Of a DNA stretch of 52,534 nucleotides, positions 990 through 33,123 are shown piece by piece. How positions within the stretch are numbered: the stretch's first letter is position 1; each line of letters opens with the position of its first letter. A model generated the notes under the pieces. That model had not been told where the DNA came from. It ran no database searches and worked only from the letters and a program-made list of their open reading frames with translations. The DNA comes from Pseudomonadota bacterium (GTDB lineage: Bacteria > Pseudomonadota > Gammaproteobacteria > Burkholderiales > SG8-39): contig JAKALD010000001.1 in the NCBI GenBank assembly GCA_021813275.1, forward strand, positions 1 through 52,534, read 5' to 3'. Both the position numbers and the translations under genes were made by a program.

Positions 990-1044
990 GTTTGCCGCTA
1001 AAATCCCGCCTTCCCGCGCGGCAGTCCATCCGGAGATTCCCCTC

Positions 1045-3144: not shown

Positions 3145-3154
3145 GAGAAGATTC

Positions 3155-10449: not shown

Positions 10450-10878
10450 CTACAGGACGAGCAGGTGCTTCTTCCGGGCGCCGCGAACCGCGTCGATGGA
10501 AACCGCCGCGTCGAGGGTGACGAACCGCCCTCCGTGCCGCACGGCGAGCGCGAGCAGGTACAGATCGGTGAGTTGGCGCGGCCCGTGAATGCGCGAAGCA
10601 TCGGCTACCTCGTGATCGAGCAGGCTCACGTCGTCGGGCCAGAACTCGTGCAGGCGGCTGGCGCTCGCCTCCGCGAGCCGTTCCACGACCGCCCGCACAG
10701 GCAACGGGTTCGGGTAGCCCGGGTGCGACATGATGCGGACGCAGCCGTTCTGCGTGATCGGACACGACGCCCACCCGGCGCGCGCCTCGCCGCCGAACCA
10801 CTGGATCACGCGCGCGTGCAGCGCATGATCGGCGTCGAGCAGGGCGATCAGGACGTTGACGTCCAGAAGCGCGTGCAT
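10450..10878 (-). CDS. vapC: Type II toxin, PIN-domain ribonuclease VapC
   Basis: 142 aa after trimming to MHALLDVNVLIAL. The acidic PIN residues are in the usual spacing (LDVNV..., ...TLD). The start overlaps the stop of the upstream antitoxin ORF. Confidence 0.85.
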   Translation of the reverse strand: MHALLDVNVLIALLDADHALHARVIQWFGGEARAGWASCPITQNGCVRIMSHPGYPNPLPVRAVVERLAEASASRLHEFWPDDVSLLDHEVADASRIHGPRQLTDLYLLALAVRHGGRFVTLDAAVSIDAVRGARKKHLLVL

Positions 10879-11123
10879 CAGTAGGCGTCTTCTTCGCGCA
10901 GCTTGTCGATCAGCTCGTTGGTAACGATGCCGCCGCGCTTCGGGAACGGCCGCAAGCCGTGGAGCGCTTTCGGCGCCCGCTCGGCGGTGGCTTGCGGCGG
11001 AGCATTGAGCGCGCGGCGGGCAAGCTCGGAAATGACTTCCCCGGCGGTTTTCTTCTCGCGCCGGGCGCGCTCCTTGGCGGCCTGCAACACGTCGGCGGCG
11101 ATGTCCAGGGTCGTTCGCATCAT
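10878..11123 (-). CDS. vapB: Type II antitoxin, VapB-like
   Basis: 81 aa. The N-terminus MMRTTLDIAADVL is typical of VapB-type antitoxins. It is a small, charged protein and is translationally coupled to vapC. Confidence 0.75.
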   Translation of the reverse strand: MMRTTLDIAADVLQAAKERARREKKTAGEVISELARRALNAPPQATAERAPKALHGLRPFPKRGGIVTNELIDKLREEDAY

Positions 11124-11982: not shown

Positions 11983-12759
11983 ATGAGCGTGAAGAAGCTC
12001 TTCGACCTCGCGGGGCGCGTCGCGATCGTCACCGGCGGCTCGCGCGGACTCGGCCTGCAGATGGCCGAGGCGCTGGGCGAGATGGGCGCGCGGCTCGCCC
12101 TCACCGCGCGCAAGAAGGACGAGCTCGACGAGGCGGTCGCGCACCTGAAGAAGCTCGGCGTCGAGGCCACGGCTTACGTGTGCGACGGTGGCAGGCGCGA
12201 GCAGATCGCCCCGGTCGCCGACGCGATCCTCAAGCACTACGGCAAGGCGGACATCCTCGTGAACAACGCCGGCGCGACCTGGGGCGCGCCCGCGGAGGAC
12301 CATCCGCTCGAGGCCTGGGACAAGCTGGTCAACCTCAACCTGACCGGCACCTTCCTCATGACTCAGCAGGTAGCGAAAAAATCGATGATCCCGAGGAAGT
12401 ACGGACGGATCGTGAACGTCGCCTCGGTCGCCGGCCTCATGGCGAGCGACCCGCGCGTGGTGCGCACCGTGGCCTACAACGCCACCAAGCACGGCGTAGT
12501 GGGCCTCACGCGCCAGTTCGCGGCCGAGTGGGGCGAGCACGGCATCACGGTGAACGCGATCTGCCCGGGGTTCTTCCCCTCGAAGATGACCCGGGGCACG
12601 CTCGACACCGTGGGCAAGCTGGTCGTCGAGGTGACGCCGACGCGGCGCCTGGGCGGCGACGAGGACCTGAAGGGCCTCGCCGTGCTGCTCGCCTCCGACG
12701 CCTCGCGGCACATCACGGGCCAGGCGATCGCGGTGGACGGCGGCGCGATAATTATCTAG
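11983..12759 (+). CDS. SDR family oxidoreductase
   Basis: 258 aa. The cofactor motif TGGSRGLG, the NNAG motif and the catalytic YNATK are present. The ribosome-binding site AAGGAGAAG lies upstream. Confidence 0.85.
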   Translation: MSVKKLFDLAGRVAIVTGGSRGLGLQMAEALGEMGARLALTARKKDELDEAVAHLKKLGVEATAYVCDGGRREQIAPVADAILKHYGKADILVNNAGATWGAPAEDHPLEAWDKLVNLNLTGTFLMTQQVAKKSMIPRKYGRIVNVASVAGLMASDPRVVRTVAYNATKHGVVGLTRQFAAEWGEHGITVNAICPGFFPSKMTRGTLDTVGKLVVEVTPTRRLGGDEDLKGLAVLLASDASRHITGQAIAVDGGAIII

Positions 12760-12761: not shown

Positions 12762-13187
12762 ATGAGCGCTACTCAGAAGCACGTCGAGCACGCGCGCGAC
12801 TACCAGAAGAAGATCCCCTTCCTCGCGCACCTCAAGATCGTCACCGAGGCGCTCGGCGAAGGCACGGCGCGCGTGTCGCTGCCGCTCGAGACCCACCTGA
12901 CCAACAGCTTCGGCAGCGCGCACGGCGGGGTCATCATGACGCTGCTCGACGTCGCGCTGTGCACCGCGGCGCGCACCCTGCATCCGGATTCGGTCGGGGT
13001 CGTCACGATCGACCTGAGCGCCTCGTTCATCGGCGCGGGCACGGGAAGGCGGCTGCTCGCCGAGGCGCGCGTGCTGCGCAACGGCCGCTCGACCATCTTC
13101 GTCGAGGGAGAGGCGAGGAACGAGGACGGCGGGCTCGTCGCCAAGGCGATCGGCACGGTGCGCGCGCGCCAGCCGGGCCACGCCTAG
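12762..13187 (+). CDS. PaaI-family (hotdog fold) thioesterase
   Basis: 141 aa after trimming the 742-aa track ORF to MSATQKHV. The motif NSFGSAHGGVIMTLLD is typical of PaaI/YdiI thioesterases. Confidence 0.8.
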   Translation: MSATQKHVEHARDYQKKIPFLAHLKIVTEALGEGTARVSLPLETHLTNSFGSAHGGVIMTLLDVALCTAARTLHPDSVGVVTIDLSASFIGAGTGRRLLAEARVLRNGRSTIFVEGEARNEDGGLVAKAIGTVRARQPGHA

Positions 13188-15328
13188 GCACGCGCCAGAA
13201 CGACGAGCGCGTCAGCCGCAACGACGCCCTCGCCCCGCGGCCGCACGAACAGCGGATTGATGTCCACTTCCGCGATCGCGTCGGCGTGATCGGCGAGCAG
13301 ATGTGAAAGCCGCGAAAGGGTGTCGGCCAGCGCGTCGACATCCGCCTCCCTCTGGCCCCGGTAGCCGTGAAGGATCCGCGCGGCGCGAATTTCACCGATC
13401 ATTGCGTGCGCTGTCGCGGCATCGAAGGGCGCAAAACGCAGACTCAGGTCGCGAAGCGCCTCGGCGAATATGCCACCGAGACCGAACACCACCGCCGGCC
13501 CGAAGTAGGGATCGTTCAGGCCCCCGGCAATGATCTCGAGACCGCTTGCCATCTCCTGCAGGAGCACACCCTCGACCCGCGCCTCGGGACGAGCGCGCGC
13601 CGCGGCTTCGCGCATCTGCGTCACGGCTCGCTTGAGCTCGTCGAGATCACGCAGGCCCACGCGCACCGCCCCGACTTCGGTCTTGTGCAGCAGGTCCGGC
13701 GACGACAGTTTTGCGACGAGGGGAAAGGCGAACGGCGCATGTTGCAGCCGGCCGACCTCGGCCCAGTCCAGCAGCACTTCGCGCGTAACCGGAATGCCGT
13801 AGGCCCGGAGCACTTCCTTCGACTGGTGCTCGGAGAGGGTCTTGCAATCCGCAGGAAATCGCAGGGCATGTCGGGCGATGTCGTATGCGCGCTCGGCCGG
13901 CGGCGTCCGCCTGGCGAGCTTCGAGGCGAACTGCCAAAGCGCCGCGGCGCCGAACGCGGCGCGGCCCGGAGTCGGATAGCAAGGAATGTGTGCGGCCTCG
14001 AGCACCTCGAATGCTTGCAGGGCGCGCTCGCGCGCCGCGCTTGAGACCATCAGGACGGGCTTGGACGAGCGCTTGGCGAGCCCGGCCAGCTCGAGCGCGA
14101 GTCGCTCGGCTTCGGGGCCTTGCATCGAGGCGCTCACCACGATGAGCTGCGCGACCGCAGGATCGTTAAGAACCGCCTCGCACACCCGGCCGAACATCGG
14201 GAAATCATTGAAGACCTGGGCGGTCACGTCCGCCGGGTTCGCCGCAGAGGCGAACTCGGGAAGGAGCTCCGCGAGCCGGCGCTGGGTGGCTTCGCCAAGC
14301 GGCGGCAAGGTCAGGCCGTATTCCTCGCAGCGATCCGCAAGCAGCACGCCGGCGCCGCCGGAGACCGACACTACGCCGACGCCCGCGCCAGCAGGCAAGC
14401 GTCGCGCGCGAAATGCCCGCACCGCGTCGACCAGATCGTCCACGTCGCGCACCTCAATGAAGCCGCCCTCGCGGAAGGCCGCCTTGTACAGCTCGTAGGG
14501 CGCGGTCAGATTGGCCGTGTGCGAGGCGGCGGCGCGCCGCCCAAGCTGCGAGTTGCCGACCTTCCAGACAAGCACCGGCTTGCCCGACCCCAGGGCGCGC
14601 TGCCCGAGCCGGCGCAGCGCACGCCCGTCGCGCACGCCCTCCAGGTAAACCGCGAGCGTCTCGACATCGTCCTGATCGATCAGGTGCTCGAGCAATGAAA
14701 CGGCGTCGACGTCGGTCTCGTTGCCGGTGGAGACCACATAGCTGAAGCCGATGCCGCTCGCCTCGGCGAGGCTCATGACTGCATAACCGAATCCGCCGCT
14801 TTGCGTGACGAGGGCCGTCTTGCCGCGCTGCACGTGCGCATACTGGAATGGGGCTCCGAACCCGCAATACACCGCGTGCGCGGGGCTCATCAGGCCCTGG
14901 CAGTTCGGGCCGACGACGCGCACACCGCTGTCGCGGATCGCGGACTCGAGCTCGTCCTGCAGCGCGCGGCCCTTCTCGCCGACCTCCTTGAATCCGGCGC
15001 TCAGCACGATTGCGAACGGTATCCCGGCGCGGCCGCAGTCGCGCAGCACCTGGGGAACGAGCCTGGCACCGACGGCGACGAGCGCCACGTCGCACGGTTG
15101 CGGAACCGACGCCGCATCGGGGTAGCACGGCAGCCCGCGGATCTCCCGATGGCGCGGATTGACCGGGTAGATGCGCCCGGCATAGCCGAACTCGGTGAGG
15201 GCGCGGATCGGCTGGCCGCCGATGCGCGCCGCGTCCGCCGAGGCACCCACGACCGCGATGCCCCGGGGCCCGAGCAGCCGCCCGAAATCGGCACGGCCGC
15301 GCCCGGTTGCGCGCGCCTCGGCGCTCAT
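13184..15328 (-). CDS. ADP-forming (NDP-forming) acyl-CoA synthetase family protein (CoA-binding, CoA-ligase and ATP-grasp domains)
   Basis: 714 aa after trimming to MSAEARAT. The N-terminal part, IAVVGAS...IYPVNP...VVGPNCQG, is the CoA-binding/ligase part. The C-terminal half looks like an ATP-grasp domain (SEHQSKEVLRAYGIP...VAKL...HKTEVGAV). Its start shares the tetranucleotide ATGA with the upstream stop. Confidence 0.85.
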   Translation of the reverse strand: MSAEARATGRGRADFGRLLGPRGIAVVGASADAARIGGQPIRALTEFGYAGRIYPVNPRHREIRGLPCYPDAASVPQPCDVALVAVGARLVPQVLRDCGRAGIPFAIVLSAGFKEVGEKGRALQDELESAIRDSGVRVVGPNCQGLMSPAHAVYCGFGAPFQYAHVQRGKTALVTQSGGFGYAVMSLAEASGIGFSYVVSTGNETDVDAVSLLEHLIDQDDVETLAVYLEGVRDGRALRRLGQRALGSGKPVLVWKVGNSQLGRRAAASHTANLTAPYELYKAAFREGGFIEVRDVDDLVDAVRAFRARRLPAGAGVGVVSVSGGAGVLLADRCEEYGLTLPPLGEATQRRLAELLPEFASAANPADVTAQVFNDFPMFGRVCEAVLNDPAVAQLIVVSASMQGPEAERLALELAGLAKRSSKPVLMVSSAARERALQAFEVLEAAHIPCYPTPGRAAFGAAALWQFASKLARRTPPAERAYDIARHALRFPADCKTLSEHQSKEVLRAYGIPVTREVLLDWAEVGRLQHAPFAFPLVAKLSSPDLLHKTEVGAVRVGLRDLDELKRAVTQMREAAARARPEARVEGVLLQEMASGLEIIAGGLNDPYFGPAVVFGLGGIFAEALRDLSLRFAPFDAATAHAMIGEIRAARILHGYRGQREADVDALADTLSRLSHLLADHADAIAEVDINPLFVRPRGEGVVAADALVVLARA

Positions 15329-16905
15329 GGTGCCCCGTCCCGCACGAGCTCGAGCTTCAGGTCGCCCTTCGAGATGTAGATGCGGCCCACCTTGGGCCGG
15401 CGCGTCAGCTCCTGCACCAGGTGCACGATCGGATTGCGCGCCGCAAGCGGCAAGCTGGCCGGTACCTGCGCGATCATTTCGTCGACCTGCGGGCCTGCGA
15501 ACATGAATCGCAGCAGCCGCTCGTCGTCGCCGGCGTTCGGGTACTTGCGCCGCAGCTCGGCAACCCCCGGCGGCGGCAGCGAAGGCTCGAGCGCGATGCG
15601 CTTGGAGCCGTTCTCCACGATCCGGTCGAGCACCTGGGGTTCGACGGGCGCGAGCAGCTTTCCGTAGTAGCCGAGCGCGTATTTCTTGACCTCGTCGGGG
15701 ACGATTTCGTAGCGCTGCCCGCGGACCACGTTGAGCACCGCTTGCGTGCCGACCAGCTGGGCGAAGGGCGTGATCATGATCGGCCAGCCCAGCTCGCGCC
15801 GCACTCGCGCGCACTCCTCGAGCAGCTCGTCGAACTTGTGCAGAATGCCGGCGTGCTCGAGCTGCGAGCGGAAATTGCTCAGCATGCCTCCCGGGATTTG
15901 ATGCTCGTAGTGGAACGGGTCGTACTCGAGCGGCGCACCGAGCGGCTTGCCCTCGCGCTCGGCGATCCTCCGGAAATGCTCGCCCACCTCGTCGATCAGG
16001 GCGTCGTCCACGGCGATGCGGTAGCCGCGGTGGCGCAGGGCGCGCGCCATGGACTGCGTCGCCGGCTGCGCGGCGCCGTTGGCGAGCGGCGCGATCGAGC
16101 TGTGGATCTCGTCCACGCCGAGATCCGCGCCTTCCAGGTACACGAGAGGCGCGAGCCCGGTCAGGCAATGGCTGTGCAGCTCGAGCGGCGTGTCGCCGGC
16201 CACCGCGCGCAGCGCCGGAACGAGCGTCCGGATGCGCTCCGGGGTGAGCAGCCCGCCTGCGTCCTTGATCATGATCGCGTCGACCCGGCCACGCTCGATG
16301 AGATCCTGCGCCGTCTTCACGTAGAGCTCGTCGGTGTGCACCGGGCTGAGCGAATAGGCGAGCGCGCCGAAAACGCGCACTCCGAGGCGCTTGGCGACCC
16401 GGATGCTCGCAAGCATGTTGTCGACGTCGTTCAGGCCGTCGAAGGCGCCCACGACGCGAAATCCGTTCGCCACCAGTCGCTCGACCCACAGCTCGATGAT
16501 GTCGTCGGGCACGAGGTCGAAGCTCATGATGTTGCGGCTGCGGATCAGCGCGCGCAACGGCGTCTGCTGGCAGCGCTCGCGCATGAGGCGCACCCGCAGC
16601 CAGGGATCCTCCCTCAGGTAGCGCACGCACACGTCGAACTGGATCGCGCCGGCGAGATCGATCTGCGCGAAGCCGCAGCGATCCATGCGCTCGGCCACCG
16701 GCAGCATGTGCGCCGTGGTCATGCGCGTCGCCCACAGGCACTGGTGCGCGTCGCGCAGCGTGGTATCGATGATCCGGATCTCGCGGCCCTTGCGATCCCG
16801 CTCCTGCACGGGGCGCTCCCGGTGCGCGGGCGCGGCGCGCTTCACGGGGCGAGATCGCGCCGCGGCGTCAGCGCGCGGGGTCGATGAGGACAAGCGGCTG
16901 CCCAT
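15325..16905 (-). CDS. Biotin-dependent carboxyltransferase subunit (oxaloacetate decarboxylase alpha / pyruvate carboxylase B / transcarboxylase 5S type) lacking a biotinyl domain
   Basis: 526 aa. It has an HMGL-like barrel (IIDTTLRDAHQ, ...KDAGGLL, LELHSHCLTGLA) and a PYC_OADA-like middle region. There is no AMKM/EVMK motif at the C-terminus. The start is uncertain: ATG at 16905 overlaps the BCCP gene, and GTG at 16845 is the alternative. Confidence 0.85.
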   Translation of the reverse strand: MGSRLSSSTPRADAAARSRPVKRAAPAHRERPVQERDRKGREIRIIDTTLRDAHQCLWATRMTTAHMLPVAERMDRCGFAQIDLAGAIQFDVCVRYLREDPWLRVRLMRERCQQTPLRALIRSRNIMSFDLVPDDIIELWVERLVANGFRVVGAFDGLNDVDNMLASIRVAKRLGVRVFGALAYSLSPVHTDELYVKTAQDLIERGRVDAIMIKDAGGLLTPERIRTLVPALRAVAGDTPLELHSHCLTGLAPLVYLEGADLGVDEIHSSIAPLANGAAQPATQSMARALRHRGYRIAVDDALIDEVGEHFRRIAEREGKPLGAPLEYDPFHYEHQIPGGMLSNFRSQLEHAGILHKFDELLEECARVRRELGWPIMITPFAQLVGTQAVLNVVRGQRYEIVPDEVKKYALGYYGKLLAPVEPQVLDRIVENGSKRIALEPSLPPPGVAELRRKYPNAGDDERLLRFMFAGPQVDEMIAQVPASLPLAARNPIVHLVQELTRRPKVGRIYISKGDLKLELVRDGAP

Positions 16906-17395
16906 ACTCCACGAGCTCCCCGTCGGCGGCGAGAACGTCGAGCACCGTTCCCTTCGTTCCCGCCTTGACCGAATTGAACAGCTTCATCACCTCGACCAGG
17001 CACACGGGGTCCTCGGGCCCGACCTGGTCGCCGATTTCCACGAAAGGCGGCGCGCCCGGGGAGGCAGCCCGGTAGAAGGTTCCGAGCATCGGCGCGCGCA
17101 CGGCCGCGCAGCCTTCCGGAACGCGCACTTCTGACCGCGCGGCGAGCACCGGCCCGAACTCGGGCGCCTGCGCAGGATCGGCCGGCGCGGGGACTGCCGA
17201 AATGTCGGCGATGCGCGGCTCTGCCGGCACGCTCCATCCGCCCGAGGAGCGCCGCAGGTGGATCTTGAGGTCCGCGAACTCCACGCGCAGCTCGTCGAAC
17301 TGCCACTCATCGACGAGCTTCAGGATCCTAGCGACGTCGTCCTCGGTCAGCGCCACCGCACGTTCCCCCCGCCGCCTTGCTTGAGCGAAACCCAC
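16868..17395 (-). CDS. Biotin carboxyl carrier protein (BCCP)
   Basis: 175 aa. The C-terminal biotinyl domain carries the motif CLVEVMKLFNSV and is preceded by a Pro/Ala-rich linker. The start is uncertain: GTG at 17395 or GTG at 17356. Confidence 0.8.
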   Translation of the reverse strand: MGFAQARRRGERAVALTEDDVARILKLVDEWQFDELRVEFADLKIHLRRSSGGWSVPAEPRIADISAVPAPADPAQAPEFGPVLAARSEVRVPEGCAAVRAPMLGTFYRAASPGAPPFVEIGDQVGPEDPVCLVEVMKLFNSVKAGTKGTVLDVLAADGELVEYGQPLVLIDPAR

Positions 17396-17464: not shown

Positions 17465-18496
17465 TTACTGCCAGTGGATCGCCTTCTCGGCGCGGTCGAG
17501 GTAGCTGTAGTCGATGTACTTGTTCATCCAGCCGTCGATGTCCTTGCCGAAGGAAGCCGGGATCTTCTTCGCGTCGATGACCGACTTCAGGATGATCCGT
17601 GTCGAGGGCATGTCGATCCGCGGGTCGGTCACGATGATCGACTTCATGGCATCCAGCACGATCGGCACTCCCTTGGGATTGTTCATCTTCTTGGCGACGA
17701 TCTCGGCCACCTGTTGCGGCGAGTGCTCCTTGATCCACTTCATGCCGCGCAGCGTCGCTTCCACGAAGCCTTCGACGGCCTTCGGGTGTGCTTTGGCGAA
17801 GGCCGGTGACACGATCACCTCGAGGCTTTCCGCGTTCTTGATCGGCGGAAGCTGGGCGATGTAGTGCAGCGCCGGGTTCTGGTGGATCGCGGTCGCGGCG
17901 GCGGGCTCCCACGAGATGAACGCGGCGATCTCACCCTTTTGCGCCATGACGGCGAAGTCCGATACCTTGGCGAACACCCGCTGGAACTTGATGTGCTGGG
18001 TGTTCTCGACGTAGGTCAGCACCGCATCCTGCACCGTACCCAGGCCGGGGCTGCCGACCTTCTGTCCGTTGAGCTCCTTGTACGAGTGGTACTTCTTGAG
18101 GCCCACCAGCGGGGCGTTGTACTTGGTGACCGACATCAGCATCTTGAAGTCCTGCCCGCGCGCGGCCATCTCCATGAACGGCGCGAGTCCGGCGGCGATC
18201 ATGTCGATCTCGCCGTTGGCGAAATGCAGCAGCCCTTCCGGGCCATTGTTGAAGGTGTGGCGCTCGATCTTGATGCCTGCGTCGGTGTAGTAGCCGAGCG
18301 CGTCGGCGACCCAGATGTTGGCGTAGTCGGCCTCCGAGCCGATCTCGTCACCCAGGCGTACGGTGGTGAGTGTCTTGCCGCCCTGAGCCCACACCGACGG
18401 CGTGACGCTCAGCGCGAGCCCGAATGCAAAGGCGGCCCCGAGCAGGCTGGAGAACAGCCGGCGTCCGCGGCGCGATACACGATCAGCGAATTGCAT
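17465..18496 (-). CDS. ABC transporter substrate-binding protein, NitT/TauT (NMT1/THI5-like) family
   Basis: 343 aa. It has an N-terminal signal peptide (LLGAAFAFGLALSVTPSVWA) and lies next to a matching permease and ATPase. Confidence 0.8.
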   Translation of the reverse strand: MQFADRVSRRGRRLFSSLLGAAFAFGLALSVTPSVWAQGGKTLTTVRLGDEIGSEADYANIWVADALGYYTDAGIKIERHTFNNGPEGLLHFANGEIDMIAAGLAPFMEMAARGQDFKMLMSVTKYNAPLVGLKKYHSYKELNGQKVGSPGLGTVQDAVLTYVENTQHIKFQRVFAKVSDFAVMAQKGEIAAFISWEPAAATAIHQNPALHYIAQLPPIKNAESLEVIVSPAFAKAHPKAVEGFVEATLRGMKWIKEHSPQQVAEIVAKKMNNPKGVPIVLDAMKSIIVTDPRIDMPSTRIILKSVIDAKKIPASFGKDIDGWMNKYIDYSYLDRAEKAIHWQ

Positions 18497-18583
18497 TTTC
18501 TTCCCTCCTCCGAGTTATCAGCTACCACTTCGACCCAGCGCGCGGCGCAGGCGCAGCGCGCCACATCCGTATGCCCGGTGGAC

Positions 18584-19378
18584 CTATCGACCGGAGCGCG
18601 ACGGCAAGGCGGAATTCAGCAGGCTGGCGAACTGCGTGCGCAGCCGCATGAACTCGGGGCTCAAGGTGTTGCGCGGCCGCGGCAGCGTGATCGGCACGTC
18701 GGCCAGGATCCGCGCCGGCTTGGCCGACAGCACGATGGTCCGATCCCCGAGGAACACGGCCTCCTCGAGGTTGTGCGTCACGAAGATGATGGTCCCCTTC
18801 TTGCGCTCCCAGATGCTCAGCACCTCGGCCTGCATCCGCTCGCGCGTGGGTTGATCGAGGCTGACGAATGGCTCGTCCATGAGGATGACGTCAGCGTCCG
18901 TGGCGAAGGCGCGCGCGATCGCCACGCGCTGCTTCATGCCGCCCGAGATCTGGTGCGGGTAATAGTCCTCGTAGCCGCGCAGATTGACGACCCCAAGAAT
19001 GTCGTCGACCACCCGCCTCACCTCGGCCTCGGGACGCTTTTTGATGCGCAGCCCGACGGCCACGTTGTTGCGCACGGTGAGCCACGGCAGGGTCGATGGC
19101 TCCTGAAATACGAACGAAATGTTGTGCCGCTTCGGATCCACCGGCTCGCCGTGGACCAGGACGCGCCCGCGGGTGGGCTTCAGCAGGCCGGCCAGGATGT
19201 CGAGCAGCGTGGTCTTGCCGCAGCCGCTCGGACCGCACAGACAGAGGAACTCGTTCTCGCGGACCGCGAACTGCAGCCCGTCGTGCACGCATAGCGCGCC
19301 GAAGCTGTGCGCGATGTCCACGTCCACCTTCACCTCGCGCGCGGCGGCGTCCCGCGGCCTGGGGAGCGTAGCCATCAT
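18584..19378 (-). CDS. ABC transporter ATP-binding protein, NitT/TauT family
   Basis: 264 aa after trimming to MMATLPRP. Walker A GPSGCGKTT, signature ISGGMKQRVAIARA and Walker B ILMDEPF are present. Confidence 0.85.
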   Translation of the reverse strand: MMATLPRPRDAAAREVKVDVDIAHSFGALCVHDGLQFAVRENEFLCLCGPSGCGKTTLLDILAGLLKPTRGRVLVHGEPVDPKRHNISFVFQEPSTLPWLTVRNNVAVGLRIKKRPEAEVRRVVDDILGVVNLRGYEDYYPHQISGGMKQRVAIARAFATDADVILMDEPFVSLDQPTRERMQAEVLSIWERKKGTIIFVTHNLEEAVFLGDRTIVLSAKPARILADVPITLPRPRNTLSPEFMRLRTQFASLLNSALPSRSGR

Positions 19379-19380
19379 GC

Positions 19381-20247
19381 CTACAGCGTCACCTGCCAGC
19401 GCCACCGAAAGAGGTATTTCTCCAGCAGCAGCAAGATCTCGTTCAGCACGAACCCGATCAGCCCGATCAGCACCATGGAGACGACCACCTCGGGAATGCG
19501 CAGCAGCTCGGAGTAGTTCACCATCATGCGGCCGAGGCCGATCGGCGTACCTCCGGTGAGCTCGGCGGCGACGATCGTCATCCATGCGGTGCCCAAGCCG
19601 ACTCGCATGCCTCCGAGGATGTCTGGCAGGACGGTCGGCACCACGATGCGCGCAAGCACGTAGGCCTTGGTTGCGCCGTAGACCAGCGCCACTTTGCGGT
19701 GAATCGGCTCAACGCGCGCCACGCCGATCAGGGTCGCCGTAAACACGGGGAAGAAGGCGCCGAGGAAGATCAGGAACGCGTAGCGCGTCAGGCCGGTGAA
19801 CAGGATGATGGCGAGCGGGATCCACGCGATCGGCGGAATGAAGCGGAAGGGCTCGATCACGGCACGAACGTTGCGGTAGACGGAGTTGTACAGCCCCATG
19901 AGCAGGCCGAGCGGCACCCCGAACACGACGCCGAGGCCGAAGCCGACGAGCAGGCGGTACACGCTCGCCCAGATGTGGCTCCACAGGCTGTTACCGAGCA
20001 CGTCGCCGTGGCGGGCCAGATCGATGAACGCTTCGTAAATCGCGGCCGGCCCTGGCAGGTACGGCGAGTGATACTCGGCGGCGCCGATCTGCCACACGAC
20101 GAGCGCGACGGCGAGCGACACGCAGTTCCACAGCACCGTCCACCAGCGGGAACGAGCTCTCGGCCCGGACGGCGCAACCGCGGCCGGCGGCGCCGGCTCC
20201 TGCGGCTCCGCCCGCACGCTGCTCAGCACCGGCGCGTGCCCGGACAT
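19381..20247 (-). CDS. ABC transporter permease, NitT/TauT family
   Basis: 288 aa after trimming to MSGHAPVL. It has multiple hydrophobic helices and the EAA-like loop VYGATKAYVLARIVVPTVLP. Confidence 0.8.
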   Translation of the reverse strand: MSGHAPVLSSVRAEPQEPAPPAAVAPSGPRARSRWWTVLWNCVSLAVALVVWQIGAAEYHSPYLPGPAAIYEAFIDLARHGDVLGNSLWSHIWASVYRLLVGFGLGVVFGVPLGLLMGLYNSVYRNVRAVIEPFRFIPPIAWIPLAIILFTGLTRYAFLIFLGAFFPVFTATLIGVARVEPIHRKVALVYGATKAYVLARIVVPTVLPDILGGMRVGLGTAWMTIVAAELTGGTPIGLGRMMVNYSELLRIPEVVVSMVLIGLIGFVLNEILLLLEKYLFRWRWQVTL

Positions 20248-20534: not shown

Positions 20535-21386
20535 ATGAGCCCCGCGCCACCGGAACGCCGGCCCGAGAAGTTCTTCGCCAAGTACCGGCCGAGCGTCGCC
20601 CACGGCGGCCCGAAATATCGGATCCTGCGCGACGCCCTCATCGCGGCGATCGAGGACGGCTACTGGGAAGTCGGCGACCGACTTCCGACCGAGCTGGAGC
20701 TGACGGCGATGACGCCTTACAGCCTCGGAACCGTGCAGCGCGCGATCCAGGCCCTGGTCGCCGAAGGTTTCGTCACCCGCAAGCCGCGCAGCGGCAGTTT
20801 CGTTGCTCCCGGGCACCGGCGCATCGGCGGCCCCTGGCTGTTCCGCTTCCTGGCCGAGGACGGGAGCGGTTTTCTCCCGATGTTCACCAAGGTGGTCGCC
20901 CGTCGGCAGGTGAAGGAGCGCGGCCAGTGGTTCGACTGGCTGACGCAGGGCGAGCCGCGCAAGCGGCTATTGCGCATCGACCGGCATATCCGGGTCGACA
21001 GCGAGCTGATTGCGTTCAACCGCGTCTATCTGGATCCCCAGCGCTATCCCGTGATTGCCTCCGCCCCGACCCGGGAGCTGGACGGCGCCAACTTCGTGCA
21101 CATGATCGAGCACGCCTACCGCCTGCCGGTAAACCACATCGCGCATACCGTGCGTTGCGCGATGCTGCCCGAGGTGGCGCGGCGCGCAATCGGCTTGAAG
21201 AAGCGCACGCTCGGCACGATTGTCGAGATCGCCGCGAGCGCCGGGCGGAGCCGCCCGGTGTCCTACCAACAAATCTTCGTGCCGCCGACCGCCTATCGTC
21301 TCTACATTTCGGAGACGAGCGCGGACTGGCACACCACGCGCTCGGGCGAGCCGCTGCCCGAGGCGCGCGGGGCCGCCTCCGGTTAG
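20535..21386 (+). CDS. GntR family transcriptional regulator (HutC/UTRA-type)
   Basis: 283 aa after trimming to MSPAPPER. The winged helix-turn-helix reads LPTELELTAMTPYSLGTVQRAIQALVAEGFVTRKPRSGSFV and is followed by a UTRA-like effector domain. Confidence 0.8.
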   Translation: MSPAPPERRPEKFFAKYRPSVAHGGPKYRILRDALIAAIEDGYWEVGDRLPTELELTAMTPYSLGTVQRAIQALVAEGFVTRKPRSGSFVAPGHRRIGGPWLFRFLAEDGSGFLPMFTKVVARRQVKERGQWFDWLTQGEPRKRLLRIDRHIRVDSELIAFNRVYLDPQRYPVIASAPTRELDGANFVHMIEHAYRLPVNHIAHTVRCAMLPEVARRAIGLKKRTLGTIVEIAASAGRSRPVSYQQIFVPPTAYRLYISETSADWHTTRSGEPLPEARGAASG

Positions 21387-22327
21387 GCGCAGGAGCCGCC
21401 CGCCAGCGTTTCGGATAGGAAACGCGCCGCCAGCGCATGCGCTGCGCGCGCGCCCCGCACCATTCCGCCCATATTGAAGAAGCCGTGGATCATGCCGGGG
21501 AAGACCTCGAGCGAGACATCGTTGCCGGCACCTGCCAGGGCCCCGGCATAGGCTCGGGCATCGTCGGCCAGCGGATCGCACTCCGCGGCGATGATCAGGC
21601 AGCGCGGCTGCCCGGCGAGGGTGCGCGCCGCAACCGGTGCGAATCGCGGGTCGTCGTCCCGGTCGCGCCCCTGCGTGTAGTTCCGATAGAACCACTCGAG
21701 GTCGTTGAGGGTCAAGAAATGGCCCTCTGCAAACTGTTGCTTCGAGGCGCTCGGCCTTCGCCCGATGGCGCTCGGGTAGACGAGGATCTGCGCCGCGGGA
21801 AGCGGCAGATCAGCCTCACGCGCGCGCAGCGACACGACGGCCGCGAGGGTCGCACCGGCGCTGTCGCCCGCGATCGCCAGATTCGCCGGCCGCTCCGCGC
21901 CCTCGCCCAAGCGCGCCAGCGCCCAATCGTACGCGCGCACGGCGTCGTCGACCGCAGCTGGAAACGGATGCTCCGGCGCGAGCCGGTAGCCCGCCGAGAA
22001 CACTCTGCAACCGCAGCGCGCCGCGAACATGCGGCAGACAATGTCGCTCGTCTCGATGCTGCCCACGCAGTAGCCGCCGCCGTGCAGCCACAGCAATCCG
22101 CCGGCGCCCGGAGCACGCCTCTCCGGTGCGTACTCGCGCACGACCAGCCCGGCTCCGAGCGGCTCATCGCTCGCCGCGACCGACGGCTCGGGCGCGAGGT
22201 CGAGCAGGCGCAAGCCCTTGTCGTAGGCCTTGCGAGCCGCGTCGATCGGCTGTGTCCATAGCGGCGGCGTGTTGTTGCGCCGCATGCCCTCCAGGATGCG
22301 CGCGACGTCCGGGTCGAGCCCTTGCAT
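21383..22327 (-). CDS. Alpha/beta hydrolase, hormone-sensitive-lipase (Abhydrolase_3) family esterase
   Basis: The oxyanion motif is LHGGGY and the nucleophile elbow is GDSAGA. The acid and His residues fall in CDPLADD and IHGFF. Start chosen at MQGLDPDV (22327); the track ORF begins at 22363, overlapping the upstream gene. Confidence 0.8.
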   Translation of the reverse strand: MQGLDPDVARILEGMRRNNTPPLWTQPIDAARKAYDKGLRLLDLAPEPSVAASDEPLGAGLVVREYAPERRAPGAGGLLWLHGGGYCVGSIETSDIVCRMFAARCGCRVFSAGYRLAPEHPFPAAVDDAVRAYDWALARLGEGAERPANLAIAGDSAGATLAAVVSLRAREADLPLPAAQILVYPSAIGRRPSASKQQFAEGHFLTLNDLEWFYRNYTQGRDRDDDPRFAPVAARTLAGQPRCLIIAAECDPLADDARAYAGALAGAGNDVSLEVFPGMIHGFFNMGGMVRGARAAHALAARFLSETLAGGSCA

Positions 22328-22335
22328 GGCCGGAA

Positions 22336-22578
22336 TCAAGGCGCGGCCGGCTCCACGCGGCACACGACGCCACCGACCTCCACGATGTCCTCGACGTTCG
22401 CGACAATCTCGACCAGCTTGCCGTCGAACGGCGCCGGGATCTCGGTGGCGACCTTCTCGGTCTCGATGTCGTAGAGCGGCTCGCCTTGCTTGAACGGATC
22501 TCCTGGCCCCTTGTGCCAGACCTTGATCGTGGCCTCTTCCATGTTCATTCCGATCCTGCCGAGCTTCAGCTCAACCAT
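22336..22578 (-). CDS. Free-standing lipoyl-attachment domain protein
   Basis: 80 aa, consisting of a single biotin/lipoyl-attachment fold. The lipoyl-lysine context is DIETEKVATEI, resembling the canonical ETDKA motif. The protein ends in a linker-like EPAAP. Its start overlaps the E1 beta stop by 8 nt. Confidence 0.8.
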   Translation of the reverse strand: MVELKLGRIGMNMEEATIKVWHKGPGDPFKQGEPLYDIETEKVATEIPAPFDGKLVEIVANVEDIVEVGGVVCRVEPAAP

Positions 22579-23563
22579 GGCGGCGCGCTCCTTCGGAGCC
22601 GGCGATCTCGAGCACCGCGCCGACTATCCTCTGGTGACCGGGTATCACGGCCTTCTCCAGCACCGGCGAATACGGGATCGCGACGTCCTCGACCGCGACG
22701 CGCCTGATCGGCGCCTTGAGCAGGTGAAAGCCACGCTCGGCCACGGTCGCGGCGATCTCGCTCGCGACACTGCACGACTTGCGCGCCTCGTCGACCACGA
22801 CCAGGCGGCCGGTGCGGCGCAGCGAGCCGAGGATGGCGTCGTAGTCCATGGGCACCACCGTGCGCGGATCGATCAGGCTCGCGGAGATACCCTGCTTCGC
22901 CAGCTCGTCGCAGGCCTTGAGCGCGGGCTTCACCATGCTGCCGAGCGCCACCACGGTGACGTCGTCACCGGCGCGCTTCTCCTCCGCCTTGCCGAGCGGA
23001 ATCACGTAGTCGCCGTCGGGCACCTCGCCGGCCTCGCCGCCGCGGCCGGCGGCCTGCAGAAGGAACACGGGGTTGTCGTCGCGAAGCGCGGCCTTGACCA
23101 GGCCCTTGGCATCGCCCGGCGCAGCCGGCATGACGATCTTGACGCCACCGAGGTTCATCAGCAGCGGATGCATGCTGTCGGAGTGCTGGGCCGCGACCGA
23201 GCGCCCGCCGCCGATCATCGCCATGTACAGGATCGGCAGCTTCACCTGCCCGCCGAGCATGTAGCGCAGCTTCGCCGCCTGGTTCGCGATCGCGTCGAAG
23301 CCGGTGTAGATGAAGTTGCCGTAGAACAGATGGCAGATCACGCGCAGGCCGGTGGCCGCCGCGCCCACCGCCATGCCGCTCATGACCGACTCCGAGATCG
23401 GCGTGTTGCGCACCCGCGCCGCCCCGAAGCGCTCGATCAGCCCGCGCGTGTCGCCCACCGGGCTGATGTGCACGTCCTCGCCCATCACGATGATCGACGG
23501 GTCGCGCTCCATTTCCTCGGCGATCGCCTCGTTGATCGCCTGCACCATGCGTTTCTTCGCCAT
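22571..23563 (-). CDS. 2-oxoacid/acetoin dehydrogenase E1 component, beta subunit
   Basis: 330 aa after trimming to MAKKRMVQAINEAI. It shows a transketolase-like pyrimidine-binding and C-terminal domain pattern (VRNTPISE..., PVFLL...). Confidence 0.9.
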   Translation of the reverse strand: MAKKRMVQAINEAIAEEMERDPSIIVMGEDVHISPVGDTRGLIERFGAARVRNTPISESVMSGMAVGAAATGLRVICHLFYGNFIYTGFDAIANQAAKLRYMLGGQVKLPILYMAMIGGGRSVAAQHSDSMHPLLMNLGGVKIVMPAAPGDAKGLVKAALRDDNPVFLLQAAGRGGEAGEVPDGDYVIPLGKAEEKRAGDDVTVVALGSMVKPALKACDELAKQGISASLIDPRTVVPMDYDAILGSLRRTGRLVVVDEARKSCSVASEIAATVAERGFHLLKAPIRRVAVEDVAIPYSPVLEKAVIPGHQRIVGAVLEIAGSEGARRHG

Positions 23564-23571
23564 CGGCTGCC

Positions 23572-24546
23572 TCACGCAAACATGTGTTGGAACGCCGCTT
23601 CCGGCTGCGGCCACGGCGCCGCGGCCGCGTACTCGAACGCCGCCTGCACCGCGGCGCGCTCCTTGTCCTCGGCGGCCGCGATCGCATCTGGCGCGATCCT
23701 CGCGCCGCGCAACGCCGCGAGCGCGACGCGCAGCGGCTCGCGCTCGCGGCGCCGCTCGACTTCCTCGTCGCTGCGGTAGCTCTTCGCGAGGAACGACTTC
23801 TCCGCCTCGACGTGACCGCGCAGGCGGTAGGTGCGCATCTCGAGGAGTGTCGCGCCACCGCCGCCGCGCGCGCGCTCGATCGCCTCGCCCGCCGCGGACC
23901 AGACTTCCCGCACGTCGTTGCCGTCGACCGGCTCGCCCGGTATGCCGAAAGGCGTGGCGCGCTTCCAGATCTCGCCCGCGGTCACCGTCGCTGTGGGCGA
24001 GAACTCCGAGAAGCCGTTGTTCTCGCACACCAGCACGAGCGGCAGCTTCCACAGCGCGGCGACGTTGAGCGATTCGAGCAGCACGCCCTGGTTCGCCGCG
24101 CCGTCGCCGAAGAAAACCACTGCCACGTTGCGCGTGCCGCGCGTCTGCGCCGACAGGGCCGCGCCGGTGGCGAGCGCGATGCCGCCGCCGACGATGCCGT
24201 TCGCGCCGAGGATGCCCTTCGAGACGTCGGCGACGTGCATCGACCCGCCCTTGCCCCCGCAGACCCCGGACGCGCGGCCGTAGACCTCGGCGACGAGCTT
24301 GCGGATTTCGTCGCTCTTGGCGAGGAAATGGCCGTGGCCGCGGTGCGTGCTGCAGATCCAGTCCTGGTCCGACAGGTGCGCGCACACCCCGACCGCCACG
24401 GCCTCCTGGCCGATGTACAGATGCACCGGGCCGGGCAGCTCGCCCGCCGCCTGCACCTGCGCCAGCCGCTCTTCGACCGTCCGGATGCGGAACATCCGGC
24501 CGTACAGCTCGAGCAGCTTCCCGCTTGTCAGTTCCTGAACGCTCAT
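23572..24546 (-). CDS. 2-oxoacid/acetoin dehydrogenase E1 component, alpha subunit (TPP-binding)
   Basis: 324 aa. The TPP motif is FFGDGAANQG...CENNGF, and THRGHGH is also present. Confidence 0.9.
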   Translation of the reverse strand: MSVQELTSGKLLELYGRMFRIRTVEERLAQVQAAGELPGPVHLYIGQEAVAVGVCAHLSDQDWICSTHRGHGHFLAKSDEIRKLVAEVYGRASGVCGGKGGSMHVADVSKGILGANGIVGGGIALATGAALSAQTRGTRNVAVVFFGDGAANQGVLLESLNVAALWKLPLVLVCENNGFSEFSPTATVTAGEIWKRATPFGIPGEPVDGNDVREVWSAAGEAIERARGGGGATLLEMRTYRLRGHVEAEKSFLAKSYRSDEEVERRREREPLRVALAALRGARIAPDAIAAAEDKERAAVQAAFEYAAAAPWPQPEAAFQHMFA

Positions 24547-24598: not shown

Positions 24599-25630
24599 TC
24601 ACGCGGCTGGAGGCGGGGCGGTCGAGCTGCGCACGACCAGCTCGGCTTCGAGCCTCACGTGGTCGGGCGTCGGGGTTCCCGCGAGGCGCGCGACGAGGAA
24701 GTCCGCGGCGCACAGGCCGATCTCGGCCGCGGGCACTCGCATGGTGGTCAGCGATGGAACGATGTGTGAAGAAAGCTCGACGTCGTCGAAGCCGGCGATC
24801 GACAGCGACTGCGGTACGCTTACCCCCTGCGCGATGCACTCGTAGAGCGCGCCGTGCGCCAGGATGTCGTTGCCGCACACCACCGCGGTCGGCGGCTCAC
24901 GCTGAGCGAGCAGCATGCGCAGCGCGCTGCGCCCGTCCGCGATGCTGTACGGCCGCTCGACGATCCGCGCCGCCGGCAGCTTGATGCCGCGCGCCGCGAG
25001 CGCATCGACTAGGCCTGCCTTGCGCTGCGCCGCGCGGTCGTTACCGCGCGTGATGCCGGCGATCATGGCGAAGCGCCGGTGGCCGAGGTCGTACAGATAG
25101 TTCGCCAGGCGCATCATCGCCAGGCGATTGTCGAAACCGATGCACGGCGCCTGGCCCGCGCCGTCGTAGATCCAGGTGTGCACGAACGGGATCGCCCGCG
25201 CCTCGATCAGGCGCGCGACTTCGGAGCCGTGCTCGGCGCCCACCAGGACGATGCCGTCGATGCCGCGCTCGACGAGCGACTGCAGCTCCGCGGACTCGCG
25301 CTCGGCCTGGTAGTCCGTGCTCGCGAGCAGCAGCGTGTAGCCGTGCGTGTTGAGCCGGCTCTGCAGCGCGTGCAGGGCCTTCGCGAACATCGCGTTGTCG
25401 ATCGTCGGCACGATTGCGCCGATGGTGCCGAACTGCTTCGAGACGAGCGAGCGCGCCGCCCGATCGGGCACGTACTTCAGCGCCTCGGCCGTCGCGCGGA
25501 TGCGCGCGACGGTCTCGGCCTTGACGCGGCCCGGGTTAGTCAGCGCGCGGGAGACCGTGGCGATGGACACGCCCGCCTTGCGCGCGACGTCCTTGATGGT
25601 GGCGGATTTTCCGCCGGCCGCTCTAGGCAA
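24599..25630 (-). CDS. LacI family transcriptional regulator
   Basis: 343 aa. The N-terminal helix-turn-helix reads ATIKDVARKAGVSIATVSRAL and is followed by a periplasmic-binding-protein-like effector domain. The apparent start is a TTG, because no in-frame ATG lies near the N-terminus. Confidence 0.85.
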   Translation of the reverse strand: MPRAAGGKSATIKDVARKAGVSIATVSRALTNPGRVKAETVARIRATAEALKYVPDRAARSLVSKQFGTIGAIVPTIDNAMFAKALHALQSRLNTHGYTLLLASTDYQAERESAELQSLVERGIDGIVLVGAEHGSEVARLIEARAIPFVHTWIYDGAGQAPCIGFDNRLAMMRLANYLYDLGHRRFAMIAGITRGNDRAAQRKAGLVDALAARGIKLPAARIVERPYSIADGRSALRMLLAQREPPTAVVCGNDILAHGALYECIAQGVSVPQSLSIAGFDDVELSSHIVPSLTTMRVPAAEIGLCAADFLVARLAGTPTPDHVRLEAELVVRSSTAPPPAA

Positions 25631-25638
25631 ACGTTTTC
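25626..25638. promoter_or_regulatory. LacI-type operator-like motif GGCAAACGTTTTC overlapping the LacI start codon
   Basis: It is an 11/12 match to the palindrome GCAAACGTTTGC and is identical to 20444-20456. The position fits autoregulation. Confidence 0.4.
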
Positions 25639-25751
25639 CACCTTCTCAATCGAAACGTCGCGATTCTATCAAGGACCAGGCCGCGCGGCGGAGCGTCGAT
25701 TCGACACGTCCGGCGCCCCCTCCCCGTAACGACCGTTGTTTCGCGTTCTGC

Positions 25752-25781
25752 TTGACAAGCGGTCGCCGAGCCCGTTAGCGT
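25752..25781 (+). promoter_or_regulatory. Candidate sigma70 promoter of the SDR/ABC/beta-hydroxyacid dehydrogenase operon
   Basis: A perfect -35 TTGACA (25752-25757) is followed by an 18-nt spacer and TAGCGT (25776-25781). The operator palindrome lies immediately downstream. Confidence 0.4.
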
Positions 25782-25786
25782 TCCGT

Positions 25787-25798
25787 GCAAACGTTTGC
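25787..25798. promoter_or_regulatory. Perfect 12-bp palindrome GCAAACGTTTGC, candidate LacI-family operator
   Basis: It fits the LacI/GalR operator pattern with a central CG. It sits between the candidate -10 element and the first gene of the plus-strand operon, divergent from the LacI gene. Confidence 0.55.
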
Positions 25799-25875
25799 CA
25801 TTCGCGCCCGCCTGGAGAAAGAGCGGCCGAAGGCGCGGTCTTCTTGATTCGATTGCACCGGAGGTCGGAGCGCAC

Positions 25876-28308: not shown

Positions 28309-28361
28309 AGCATGTCCATCGGAGCGGGAGGCGCTCCATGTCACCACGAGGAGGAGAGGAA

Positions 28362-29435: not shown

Positions 29436-29630
29436 GCGCCACCGCCAGCTCGGTCGCGGCTAGTCGCCGGCGCGCTCGCGTCGGCGGCCGCCACGGCCGG
29501 TCGGCGCGTTTCATCGTGCGTGGGCCGACGCGCCCGCCCGGGCGTCATAATCGGGGTCACCGCGCACGCGTGCCGCAAACGGATACGCGCTCCAGCATCC
29601 GGCGCGGCGTCGGGCAAGGGAACAACAATT

Positions 29631-30428: not shown

Positions 30429-30443
30429 GCCGAGAGAGGAACC

Positions 30444-32333: not shown

Positions 32334-32349
32334 CGTCGCCTTCCGGTCG

Positions 32350-33120: not shown

Positions 33121-33123
33121 CGC

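Follow-up and report, generated by a model that had tools for sequence, protein, structure and literature searches.

The operon examined here runs from 20247 to 13184 on the minus strand of a 52,534 nt stretch of DNA (hereafter the window; G+C about 70%) from a member of the Burkholderiales lineage SG8-39 (GenBank assembly GCA_021813275.1, contig JAKALD010000001.1, positions 1 to 52,534). Its six genes specify a NitT/TauT-type importer, a biotin carboxyl carrier protein (BCCP), a carboxyltransferase (CT) and an ADP-forming acyl-CoA synthetase (ACS), and a gene for the biotin carboxylase (BC) that usually charges such a carrier is missing. The operon is probably a gene-loss variant of a conserved cluster and not a new kind of enzyme. 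Of the explanations weighed below, the best is that BC is supplied in trans and that the ACS acts as a downstream ligase, and this is judged probable, with appreciable room for doubt.

Biotin carboxylase in related gene clusters

A scan using one genome per species gave 457 CT relatives, of which the best 80 loci (61–89% identity) were analysed with up to 10 kb of flanking sequence per side, by tblastn and by all-against-all clustering of open reading frames. The gene most often found with CT in these 80 loci is that of BCCP (55 loci), followed by genes for the importer ATPase (46), AccC-like BC (44), the importer permease (43, the orthologues being 63–92% identical to that of the window), the periplasmic substrate-binding protein (SBP, 35), short-chain dehydrogenases/reductases (SDRs, 27), a GGT-like Ntn hydrolase (21) and the beta-keto acid cleavage enzyme BKACE (16). 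Rarer partners include IclR and GntR regulators, HIBADH, GMC and HisDH-like dehydrogenases, AcnX, a GlcD-like oxidase and a sulfatase, and the flanking dehydrogenases differ from locus to locus. Scanning the conserved neighbours (GGT-like, BKACE, SDRs, HisDH-like, AcnX, GMC and thiolase) against NCBIfam and PDB gave no equivalog-level name. When the comparison is restricted to the 40 loci whose flanks reach 5 kb or more on each side, BC is present in 29 and BCCP in 36, while eight have BCCP without BC and three have neither. Since BC occurs in 29 of these 40 well-flanked loci, the norm for the family is taken to be a three-protein carboxylase of BC, BCCP and CT with its own importer. The CT of the window is 75–78% identical to CTs that are found with BC.

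The same picture emerges from the ACS. Homologues that are 29–37% identical to it, and one at 53%, are unlinked to biotin genes, but orthologues at or above about 58% identity are linked. When metagenomes were scanned with the ACS, most hits were distant members of the ACD superfamily (29–37%) with no CT or BCCP nearby, the informative hits being L092 and L093 only (related loci are numbered with the prefix L). Eight other operon layouts keep CT together with an orthologous ACS, and seven of these carry BC. One of them is L180, with the order DUF35-thiolase-permease-ATPase-SBP-GGT-SDR-BCCP-BC-CT-ACS, and L174 (SBP-GGT-...-BCCP-BC-CT-ACS) and L065 (BCCP-BC-CT-ACS-DUF35-thiolase) likewise have BC between BCCP and CT. 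So do L176 and L177, in which a CoA-transferase and a 12S-type CT accompany BCCP-BC-CT-ACS-DUF35-thiolase-TRAP-SDRs. The BC gene stands further along in L172 and L173 (a divergent GntR gene, then permease-ATPase-SBP-GGT-SDR-CT-BCCP-ACS-DUF35-thiolase-BC-OYE), in L175 (BCCP-ACS-DUF35-thiolase-BC, with CT divergent) and in L008 (GGT-CT-BCCP-ACS-BC). The eighth layout, L053, reads SDR-SDR-CT-ACS and has neither BCCP nor BC, on a contig that reaches just 1.4 kb upstream of CT. A more distant ACS (44%) adjoins CT in L009, where BCCP and BC are absent within 21 kb.

The clearly BC-less members are the window (permease-ATPase-SBP-BCCP-CT-ACS) and L006 and L092 (permease-ATPase-SBP-GGT-BCCP-CT-ACS) only, and these two relatives are close to the window, with ACS 84–85% and CT 88–89% identical. 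Judged from gene order, L180, L006/L092 (lacking SDR and BC) and the window (lacking GGT as well) form a deletion series, the BC gene between BCCP and CT having been deleted within the shallow clade to which the window belongs.

Within the whole 52.5 kb of the window, tblastn with E. coli AccC or with the cluster-type BC of L172 detected no BC, and nearly all predicted genes were free of Pfam matches to Biotin_carb/CPSase_L_D2, Carboxyl_trans (12S) and OAD_beta/OAD_gamma; the few transporter subunits of two other ABC systems of the window were identified by tblastn only, not Pfam. OadB and OadG are also absent among the conserved neighbours in the 80 CT loci. An earlier note on this DNA, made from the sequence alone, had reported that the window has no BC, no 12S-type CT and no OadB/OadG-type subunits, and these searches bear it out. 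The window likewise has no GGT-like hydrolase, no DUF35/thiolase pair and no BKACE.

The genes that remain in the BC-less clade are being maintained. Pairwise dN/dS was calculated among the window, L006 and L092, at dS values of 0.13–0.53, and gave 0.09–0.19 for CT, 0.18–0.20 for ACS, 0.34–0.41 for BCCP (the highest in the operon) and 0.11–0.27 for the transporter genes. BCCP, CT and ACS are thus under purifying selection in this clade, and the operon is therefore not a decaying remnant. Where a metagenome-assembled genome was sampled at several loci, the BC-less CT loci were in all three cases paired with a BC-containing locus of the family (L060 with L067, L083 with L061, and both L064 and L084 with L078). 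In two loci, L067 and L077, a pair of CT paralogues flanks a single BCCP-BC pair. Members of the family thus visibly share BC. Bacteria with type II fatty acid synthesis carry accC, and the architecture of AccB-type carriers is the type that docks onto AccC-like BC. The earlier note had offered supply of BC in trans as its alternative, and this is now the favoured reading, given the AccB-type BCCP (described below), the purifying selection, and the pairing of BC-less with BC-containing loci.

Several features of the related loci may be recorded here. A separate CT lineage (61–65% identical to the window CT; L060, L063, L070–L073, L079, L080 and L085) has the order NMT1-like SBP, GlcD-like FAD oxidase, BCCP, CT; genes for BC, an ABC permease or an ATPase are missing from its surroundings, and housekeeping genes (msrB, ispZ/yciB, PPIase) come next. 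TauE-family (sulfite-exporter-like) genes adjoin the carboxylase operon in L172 (14431–17123), L087 (20474–21482) and L175 (200–967), accompanied in two of the three cases by Ldh_2 and 2-Hacid_dh dehydrogenases; the gene content here hints at organosulfonate metabolism. A family-III CoA-transferase and a 12S-type Carboxyl_trans protein are encoded beside BCCP-BC-(5S-type CT)-ACS in L176 (1–710) and L177 (2821–9004 and 18085–20112). In L177 they lie directly upstream in the same operon, and a further set of BC, a 73-aa carrier and 12S is found downstream. One BC/BCCP pair apparently serves both the 12S- and the 5S-type CT in these two loci.

The operon and its proteins

The six genes are closely packed, with successive intergenic gaps of 2, 87, 108 and 58 nt and then a 4 nt overlap, and are considered one operon. 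The importer comprises an ABC permease of the NitT/TauT type (19381–20247, 288 aa; Pfam BPD_transp_1), whose nearest NCBIfam models, SaoP and TauC, both score under cutoff, an ABC ATPase (18584–19378, 264 aa; ABC_tran) and an NMT1/SsuA-like periplasmic SBP (17465–18496, 343 aa; NMT1, NMT1_2). The SBP reaches 70 bits against TIGR01728 (SsuA_fam), which is under cutoff, and its PDB matches are weak (3qsl and the taurine SBP 6ssy). Upstream of the operon, on the plus strand, lies a divergent gene for a GntR-family regulator (20535–21386, 283 aa; Pfam GntR), which is likely to regulate it; L087, L172 and the Polynucleobacter loci have a divergent GntR/UTRA regulator at the equivalent place.

The BCCP gene (16868–17356, 162 aa) has an alternative GTG start at 17395, and CT (stop at 15325) could begin at GTG 16809, as in the NCBI gene call, giving 494 aa, or at ATG 16905, giving 526 aa. 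A CT of 494 aa fits the length of the family, 465–519 aa. The starts are probably 17356 for BCCP (that of the public gene call) and 16809 for CT. BCCP matches TIGR00531 (AccB) over its full length at 117.6 against a cutoff of 115.2 and has a Biotin_lipoyl domain. In the alignment its N-terminal domain is AccB-like, a Pro/Ala linker and the thumb are present, and the biotinylation motif EVMKL has its predicted biotinyl lysine at K125 (codon 16982–16984). It falls in a subgroup with the motif EVMKLFNS and is 46% identical to the BCCP of L174, which itself is directly upstream of BC. The window BCCP is orthologous to, and closest to, those BCCPs that directly precede BC.

The CT consists of HMGL-like and PYC_OADA domains, without Biotin_lipoyl. 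It scores 450 bits (cutoff 402) with NF006761, a 'domain'-type model named 'pyruvate carboxylase subunit B', but the curated equivalog models for PycB, OadA and 5S are all far from being reached: 368 against 734 for NF010644 and 280 against 1182 for NF010645 (both PycB), and 295 against 827 for the 5S model NF008984. It is therefore a homologue and not an orthologue of the 5S subunit. The best PDB matches are OadA (2nx9, E=1e-90), PycB (5ks8_C, 7e-88) and 5S (1rqb, 2e-77). Conserved residues include the metal ligands D20, K182 (carbamyl-Lys), H212 and H214, the Arg and Gln of DTTLRDAHQ, R90 (the Arg of the LIRSRN / LLRGxN loop) and PGGMLSN, while the substrate loop reads IRSRNIMSF, as against LRGQNLLGY in pyruvate carboxylase, oxaloacetate decarboxylase and 5S. 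The biotinyl domain is missing throughout the family: the best 120 homologues listed, of 465–519 aa, all have the same two domains. CTs of this family share a conserved C-terminal tail, P(I/L)VxL(V/L)xEL..R...G.(I/V)Y(I/V).KGD..LE(I/L), which occupies the last 35 or so residues of the window protein (15325–15430) and is seen in the homologues P0001–P0117. By eye it resembles the N-terminal AccB motif ILxLVDE....L..GD.KL.LRR, although BLASTP gives no alignment, and the likeness may be a coincidence or reflect a docking element.

The ACS (13184–15328, 714 aa) is a fused alpha-beta member of the ACD superfamily. CoA_binding_2, Succ_CoA_lig, Ligase_CoA_2 and ATP-grasp_5 all score above cutoff, and all five ACD subdomains are present. 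Its best PDB matches are the archaeal 3-hydroxypropionate (9y43) and 4-hydroxybutyrate (8wzu) CoA ligases, ckcACD (4xyl) and DddX (7cm9). Both catalytic histidines are kept: H270, the phosphohistidine, lies in ASHTANL, where 9y43 and 4xyl_A have SHTGS(L/I) and 8wzu has SHTGAL, and H548 of the beta part lies in LLHKTEVGAV, which aligns with (I/L)HK(T/S)DxGGV. It is around 30–35% identical to the distant ACD homologues sampled and far under the cutoffs of the NCBIfam equivalogs for acetate, 3-hydroxypropionate and 4-hydroxybutyrate ligases. In nearly all of the 120 homologues P0121–P0240, SHTA(N/R)(L/M)(T/S) (residues 268–274 of the window protein) replaces the canonical SHTGSLAG, and the beta-part motif of this clade is mostly PHKTEAGAV.

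Much of what the earlier note had read from the letters survives these analyses. Pfam and NCBIfam confirm each of the domains it had named for the importer, BCCP, CT and ACS of the operon; the stand-alone BCCP with its EVMKL motif is of AccB type; and the 714-aa protein is, by domain scan and tblastn, an acyl-CoA synthetase of the NDP-forming type without a BC module. The note had also described the CT as an OadA/PycB/5S-type protein that had lost its own biotinyl domain. The type and the absence of the domain are correct, but a loss specific to this gene is not supported, the trait being family-wide. The ATGA shared by the CT stop and the ACS start (15325–15328, minus strand) can be read directly in the sequence, and the functional link between CT and ACS that had been argued from it gains support from other loci, where tight junctions recur: L006 and L092 have ATGA as well, the two genes overlap in L053 and L065, and 2–9 nt separate them in L009 and L174.

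A possible route and its alternatives

On the best explanation, the window carries a cut-down version of a conserved catabolic operon that centres on a three-protein biotin carboxylase and has a dedicated NitT/TauT importer. The importer would bring in a compound, which might then be hydrolysed and oxidized. BCCP would be charged in trans, either by a paralogous cluster-type BC or by the housekeeping AccC, and CT would then carboxylate a pyruvate-like carbonyl compound formed from the imported one, yielding a beta-keto acid. The translationally coupled ACS would convert this acid to its CoA thioester, to be cleaved by a thiolase, for which the window would need a classical thiolase in trans and other genomes could use an adjacent DUF35/SCP-x pair. 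In many other genomes, BKACE would replace ACS and thiolase with a single step that uses acetyl-CoA.

The later steps are suggested by the company kept by the ACS gene. In L172, L175, L176, L177, L065 and L180 it occurs with genes for a DUF35 protein (OB_ChsH2_C) and an SCP-x-type thiolase (subfamily PRK06158). The trio is placed between BCCP and BC in L172 and L175, while in L180 the DUF35/thiolase pair is first in the operon and ACS last. DUF35/thiolase pairs include the known beta-ketoacyl-CoA thiolase BbsAB, and BKACE converts a beta-keto acid and acetyl-CoA to an acyl-CoA and acetoacetate. BKACE is found with CT in some loci, sometimes along with a hotdog thioesterase (in L019 a 4HBT thioesterase precedes BKACE). 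Among the 40 well-flanked loci, ACS occurs in eight and BKACE in 14, but never both (hypergeometric P=0.02, uncorrected for phylogeny). From this we infer that ACS plus thiolase and BKACE would be biochemically equivalent means of disposing of a beta-keto acid, and hence a likely route of carboxylation followed either by CoA ligation and thiolysis or by BKACE cleavage. The BKACE of the Polynucleobacter cluster (L012, 16053–16934) matches PDB entries 9zsc, 9zsh, 9zsn and 9zsv at E=2e-97, and these are named '3-keto-5-aminohexanoate cleavage protein' only.

The earlier note had preferred a non-canonical enzyme that works without BC. In such a scheme, BCCP and CT would act as an ATP-independent transcarboxylase or decarboxylase: CT would move CO2 from a beta-keto acid such as oxaloacetate to biotin, from which it would be released or passed to an acceptor, perhaps a second 2-oxo acid or ketone in the same active site, and the ACS would handle the acid product or make ATP from a CoA ester. 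CT domains of the pyruvate carboxylase and oxaloacetate decarboxylase type do couple oxaloacetate decarboxylation to biotin carboxylation, ACD enzymes are reversible, BCCP and CT are under purifying selection with no BC nearby, and the eight well-flanked loci having BCCP-CT without BC include the separate SBP-like/FAD-oxidase/BCCP/CT lineage. Yet the similarity of the window CT to BC-associated CTs (75–78%) and the orthology of its BCCP to BC-adjacent ones suggest the same chemistry; that BCCP is of AccB type, not the short carrier of decarboxylases or transcarboxylase; the window offers no OadB/G, 12S or other sink for carboxybiotin; and every genome sampled at several loci has a BC-containing paralogous locus. 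Moreover, the orthologous clusters normally have an adjacent AccC-like BC that has been lost in the window lineage, and the proposal therefore fails on the very ground that the note had named for giving it up. It is regarded as decidedly unlikely. A narrower version would apply to the lineages without BC, namely the window with L006 and L092 and, independently, the SBP-like/FAD-oxidase/BCCP/CT clusters. In these, BCCP and CT would form an ATP-independent transcarboxylase with a single CT, carrying CO2 from oxaloacetate or another beta-keto acid to the substrate of the pathway, or, at the extreme, the ACS would charge biotin. This is a long shot; if true, an ATP-independent shuttle or an ACS that charges biotin would be a new way to run a biotin enzyme. 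The specific idea that an ACD-type ACS replaces BC, forming carboxyphosphate from bicarbonate and carboxylating biotinyl-BCCP in place of CoA, is barely credible. The ACS is the sole ATP-using enzyme of the operon in the window clade and is translationally coupled to CT, its phosphohistidine motif SHTA(N/R)(L/M)T is unusual compared with SHTGSLAG, and acyl-phosphate chemistry of ACD enzymes could be seen as formally analogous to carboxyphosphate formation. Against this, a bona fide BC in seven of the eight other layouts with CT and ACS makes the ACS an addition and not a substitute, its CoA-binding domains are intact, and the unusual motif is also present in ACS orthologues of BC-containing clusters. 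The DUF35 and thiolase genes that usually come after ACS need a CoA ester, and the ACS of L179 has no BCCP in the 10 kb upstream.

More conventional accounts also have to be considered. CT and BCCP could be an ordinary anaplerotic pyruvate carboxylase module served by BC in trans, with ACS a biochemically unlinked neighbour. This would agree with the PGAP name 'pyruvate carboxylase subunit B' and the NF006761 match, with the conserved pyruvate- and metal-binding residues, with the variable flanking dehydrogenases (as if many routes fed one intermediate), and with the ACS of L179, which has no CT in the 10 kb upstream. It is nevertheless rather unlikely, in view of the overlapping or near-abutting CT-ACS junctions in six loci, the insertion of ACS-DUF35-thiolase between BCCP and BC in L172 and L175, the mutual exclusion of ACS and BKACE, the altered substrate loop IRSRNIMSF and the curated equivalogs far under cutoff. 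It is very improbable that BCCP and CT are non-functional passengers, left to decay once BC and, later, GGT and SDR had gone. The stepwise gene loss from L180 through L006/L092 to the window and the dN/dS of BCCP might suggest it, but reading frames, catalytic residues and biotinylation motif are all intact, and BCCP, CT and ACS each have a dN/dS well below 1 across the three members.

The reading preferred here, BC in trans with the ACS as a downstream ligase, has its own difficulties. The supply of BC is argued by analogy and from the general presence of AccC, with 52.5 kb of the genome in view, and the beta-keto-acid route is deduced from gene content. The window, without GGT-like hydrolase, DUF35/thiolase pair or BKACE, is more reduced than the model requires, and L179 has an ACS that is 81% identical but no CT or BCCP in 10 kb upstream (about 0.5 kb of contig remains downstream), so the ACS may not be strictly tied to the carboxylase. 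CT also retains the residues that bind the carboxylate of pyruvate. If pyruvate were the substrate, activation of oxaloacetate with CoA followed by thiolysis would make little metabolic sense, which makes a modified 2-oxo or keto acid the likelier substrate, although this is speculative. Oxamate, sulfonates (sulfopyruvate, sulfoacetone), levulinate (to 3-oxoadipate), acetol, acetoin and, as the species transported, bicarbonate were weighed as candidates, and no claim is made for any of them.

Other genes of the window and comparison with known systems

To judge from its other genes, the window as a whole resembles the same catabolic system in scattered form, with orthologues of the CT-flanking dehydrogenases spread over 25.7–38.2 kb. 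On the plus strand, a second NitT/TauT importer occurs with an SDR gene (25756–26712) and a gene for a HIBADH-type dehydrogenase (30429–31322), together spanning 25756–31322 (Pfam). The HIBADH is 70–78% identical to the product of the gene directly upstream of CT in L040, L036, L032, L034, L024, L033 and L052, and the SDR is 56–60% identical to the one that neighbours it in L036, L040 and L052. On the minus strand (31341–38181), a third NitT/TauT importer is accompanied by genes for a HisDH-like protein (33124–34434; 67–72% identical to those in L035, L018, L051 and L041), an SDR (32350–33123; 57–62% identical to the SDR directly upstream of CT in L172, L087, L007, L038 and L023) and a Zn-ADH (31341–32429), again by Pfam. 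There are thus three paralogous NitT/TauT importers within 21 kb (17465–20247, 26669–30428 and 34437–38181), with dehydrogenase genes (SDR, HIBADH, HisDH-like, Zn-ADH) adjacent and LacI-type regulators near two of them; their permeases and ATPases are 33–42% identical to one another.

Convergent with the operon, and overlapping the ACS stop with its end, is a plus-strand gene for a hotdog-fold 4HBT/PaaI-like thioesterase (12762–13187; Pfam 4HBT, TIGR00369), which is retained beside ACS in L006 (86%), L092 (85%) and L179. Adjoining it is an SDR of the gluconate-5-dehydrogenase subfamily (11983–12759, plus strand; 397 bits with NF006070, cutoff 279), found 92–93% identical at the same position in L006 and L092. 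The window also has a classical FadB/FadA pair (904–4333). The minus-strand genes at 21383–24546 encode acetoin-/2-oxoacid-dehydrogenase-like E1 alpha and E1 beta subunits, a free-standing lipoyl protein of 80 aa and an Abhydrolase_3/BD-FAE hydrolase, the latter two standing where a normal E2 would be, and a LacI-type regulator gene lies at 24599–25645. This four-gene set recurs in L179 (3355–6506), where ACS and thioesterase genes are found beside a TRAP transporter, and it may form a further branch of that catabolic island. Between genes for an aldehyde dehydrogenase and a ThrH-like phosphatase, an 81-aa open reading frame with no Pfam match comes before the gene of a 142-aa PIN-domain protein (10450–11123, minus strand), a layout like that of VapBC-type toxin-antitoxin pairs.

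Several known systems resemble the operon in part. PycA/PycB (alpha4beta4; the pyruvate carboxylase of Methylobacillus flagellatus, 5ks8) and the related 2-oxoglutarate carboxylase CfiAB share the fold and subfamily of the CT, with its metal ligands and substrate Arg and Gln conserved, and in most related loci the CT has an AccC-like BC as its partner. However, the window carrier is a separate AccB-type protein and not a C-terminal domain of the CT subunit as in PycB, the window has no BC gene, and an anaplerotic pyruvate carboxylase has no need of the importer and CoA-ester enzymes of the operon. The OadA/OadB/OadG sodium pump includes the best CT match (OadA, 2nx9) and is a biotin enzyme that works without BC, but the window lacks OadB and OadG, its CT has no fused biotinyl domain and its carrier is of AccB type. 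Moreover, orthologous clusters have a BC, a sign that the reaction runs towards carboxylation. The Propionibacterium transcarboxylase (12S/5S/1.3S) is similar in having a CT homologous to the window's (5S, with PGGMLSN), a separate carrier and no BC in cis, and differs in that the window has no 12S subunit, the carrier is AccB and not 1.3S, and most relatives have BC; a 12S-type CT beside BCCP-BC-CT was seen in L176 and L177 only.

A parallel in metabolic logic is offered by the acetone and acetophenone carboxylase routes, which lead from a ketone to a beta-keto acid, a beta-ketoacyl-CoA and thiolysis. The order of dehydrogenase, carboxylase, CoA ligase and thiolase that is inferred here (SDR, BC/BCCP/CT, ACS and DUF35/thiolase) is similar, but the carboxylases of those routes are biotin-independent (hydantoinase family) and their ligases AMP-forming, whereas the window family has a biotin-dependent 5S-type CT and an ADP-forming ligase, so the likeness is one of mechanism, not homology. 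The ACS, for its part, shares the full five-subdomain architecture and both catalytic histidines with ACD synthetases (8wzu, 9y43, 4xyl and 7cm9) and differs from them in its clade motif SHTA(N/R)(L/M)T and in its link with biotin-carboxylase genes. A literature search returned nothing describing the cluster, the CT family or the association of ACS with a biotin carboxylase, and the BCCP-CT-ACS trio matched no characterised enzyme found. BKACE and a carboxylase were met with together in synthetic CO2-fixation designs only, and a search for SaoX gave unrelated AOX papers. No NCBIfam equivalog or close PDB entry describes the CT family.

The full gene set joins a 5S-type biotin carboxylase of three proteins to dehydrogenases, an importer of the TauT-like or TRAP kind, and either BKACE or ACS/DUF35/thiolase. 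It is widespread among both Alpha- and Betaproteobacteria, isolates of Polynucleobacter and Hyphomicrobium among them, and appears unstudied. Its content probably points to a carboxylation-dependent catabolism of a carbonyl compound, likely an anionic one. Names such as 'pyruvate carboxylase subunit B', 'oxaloacetate decarboxylase alpha' and 'acetate--CoA ligase' are homology labels that probably mislead when applied to these proteins. Identification of the substrate would add a new specificity to the biotin-dependent carboxylases and would allow many annotations to be corrected.

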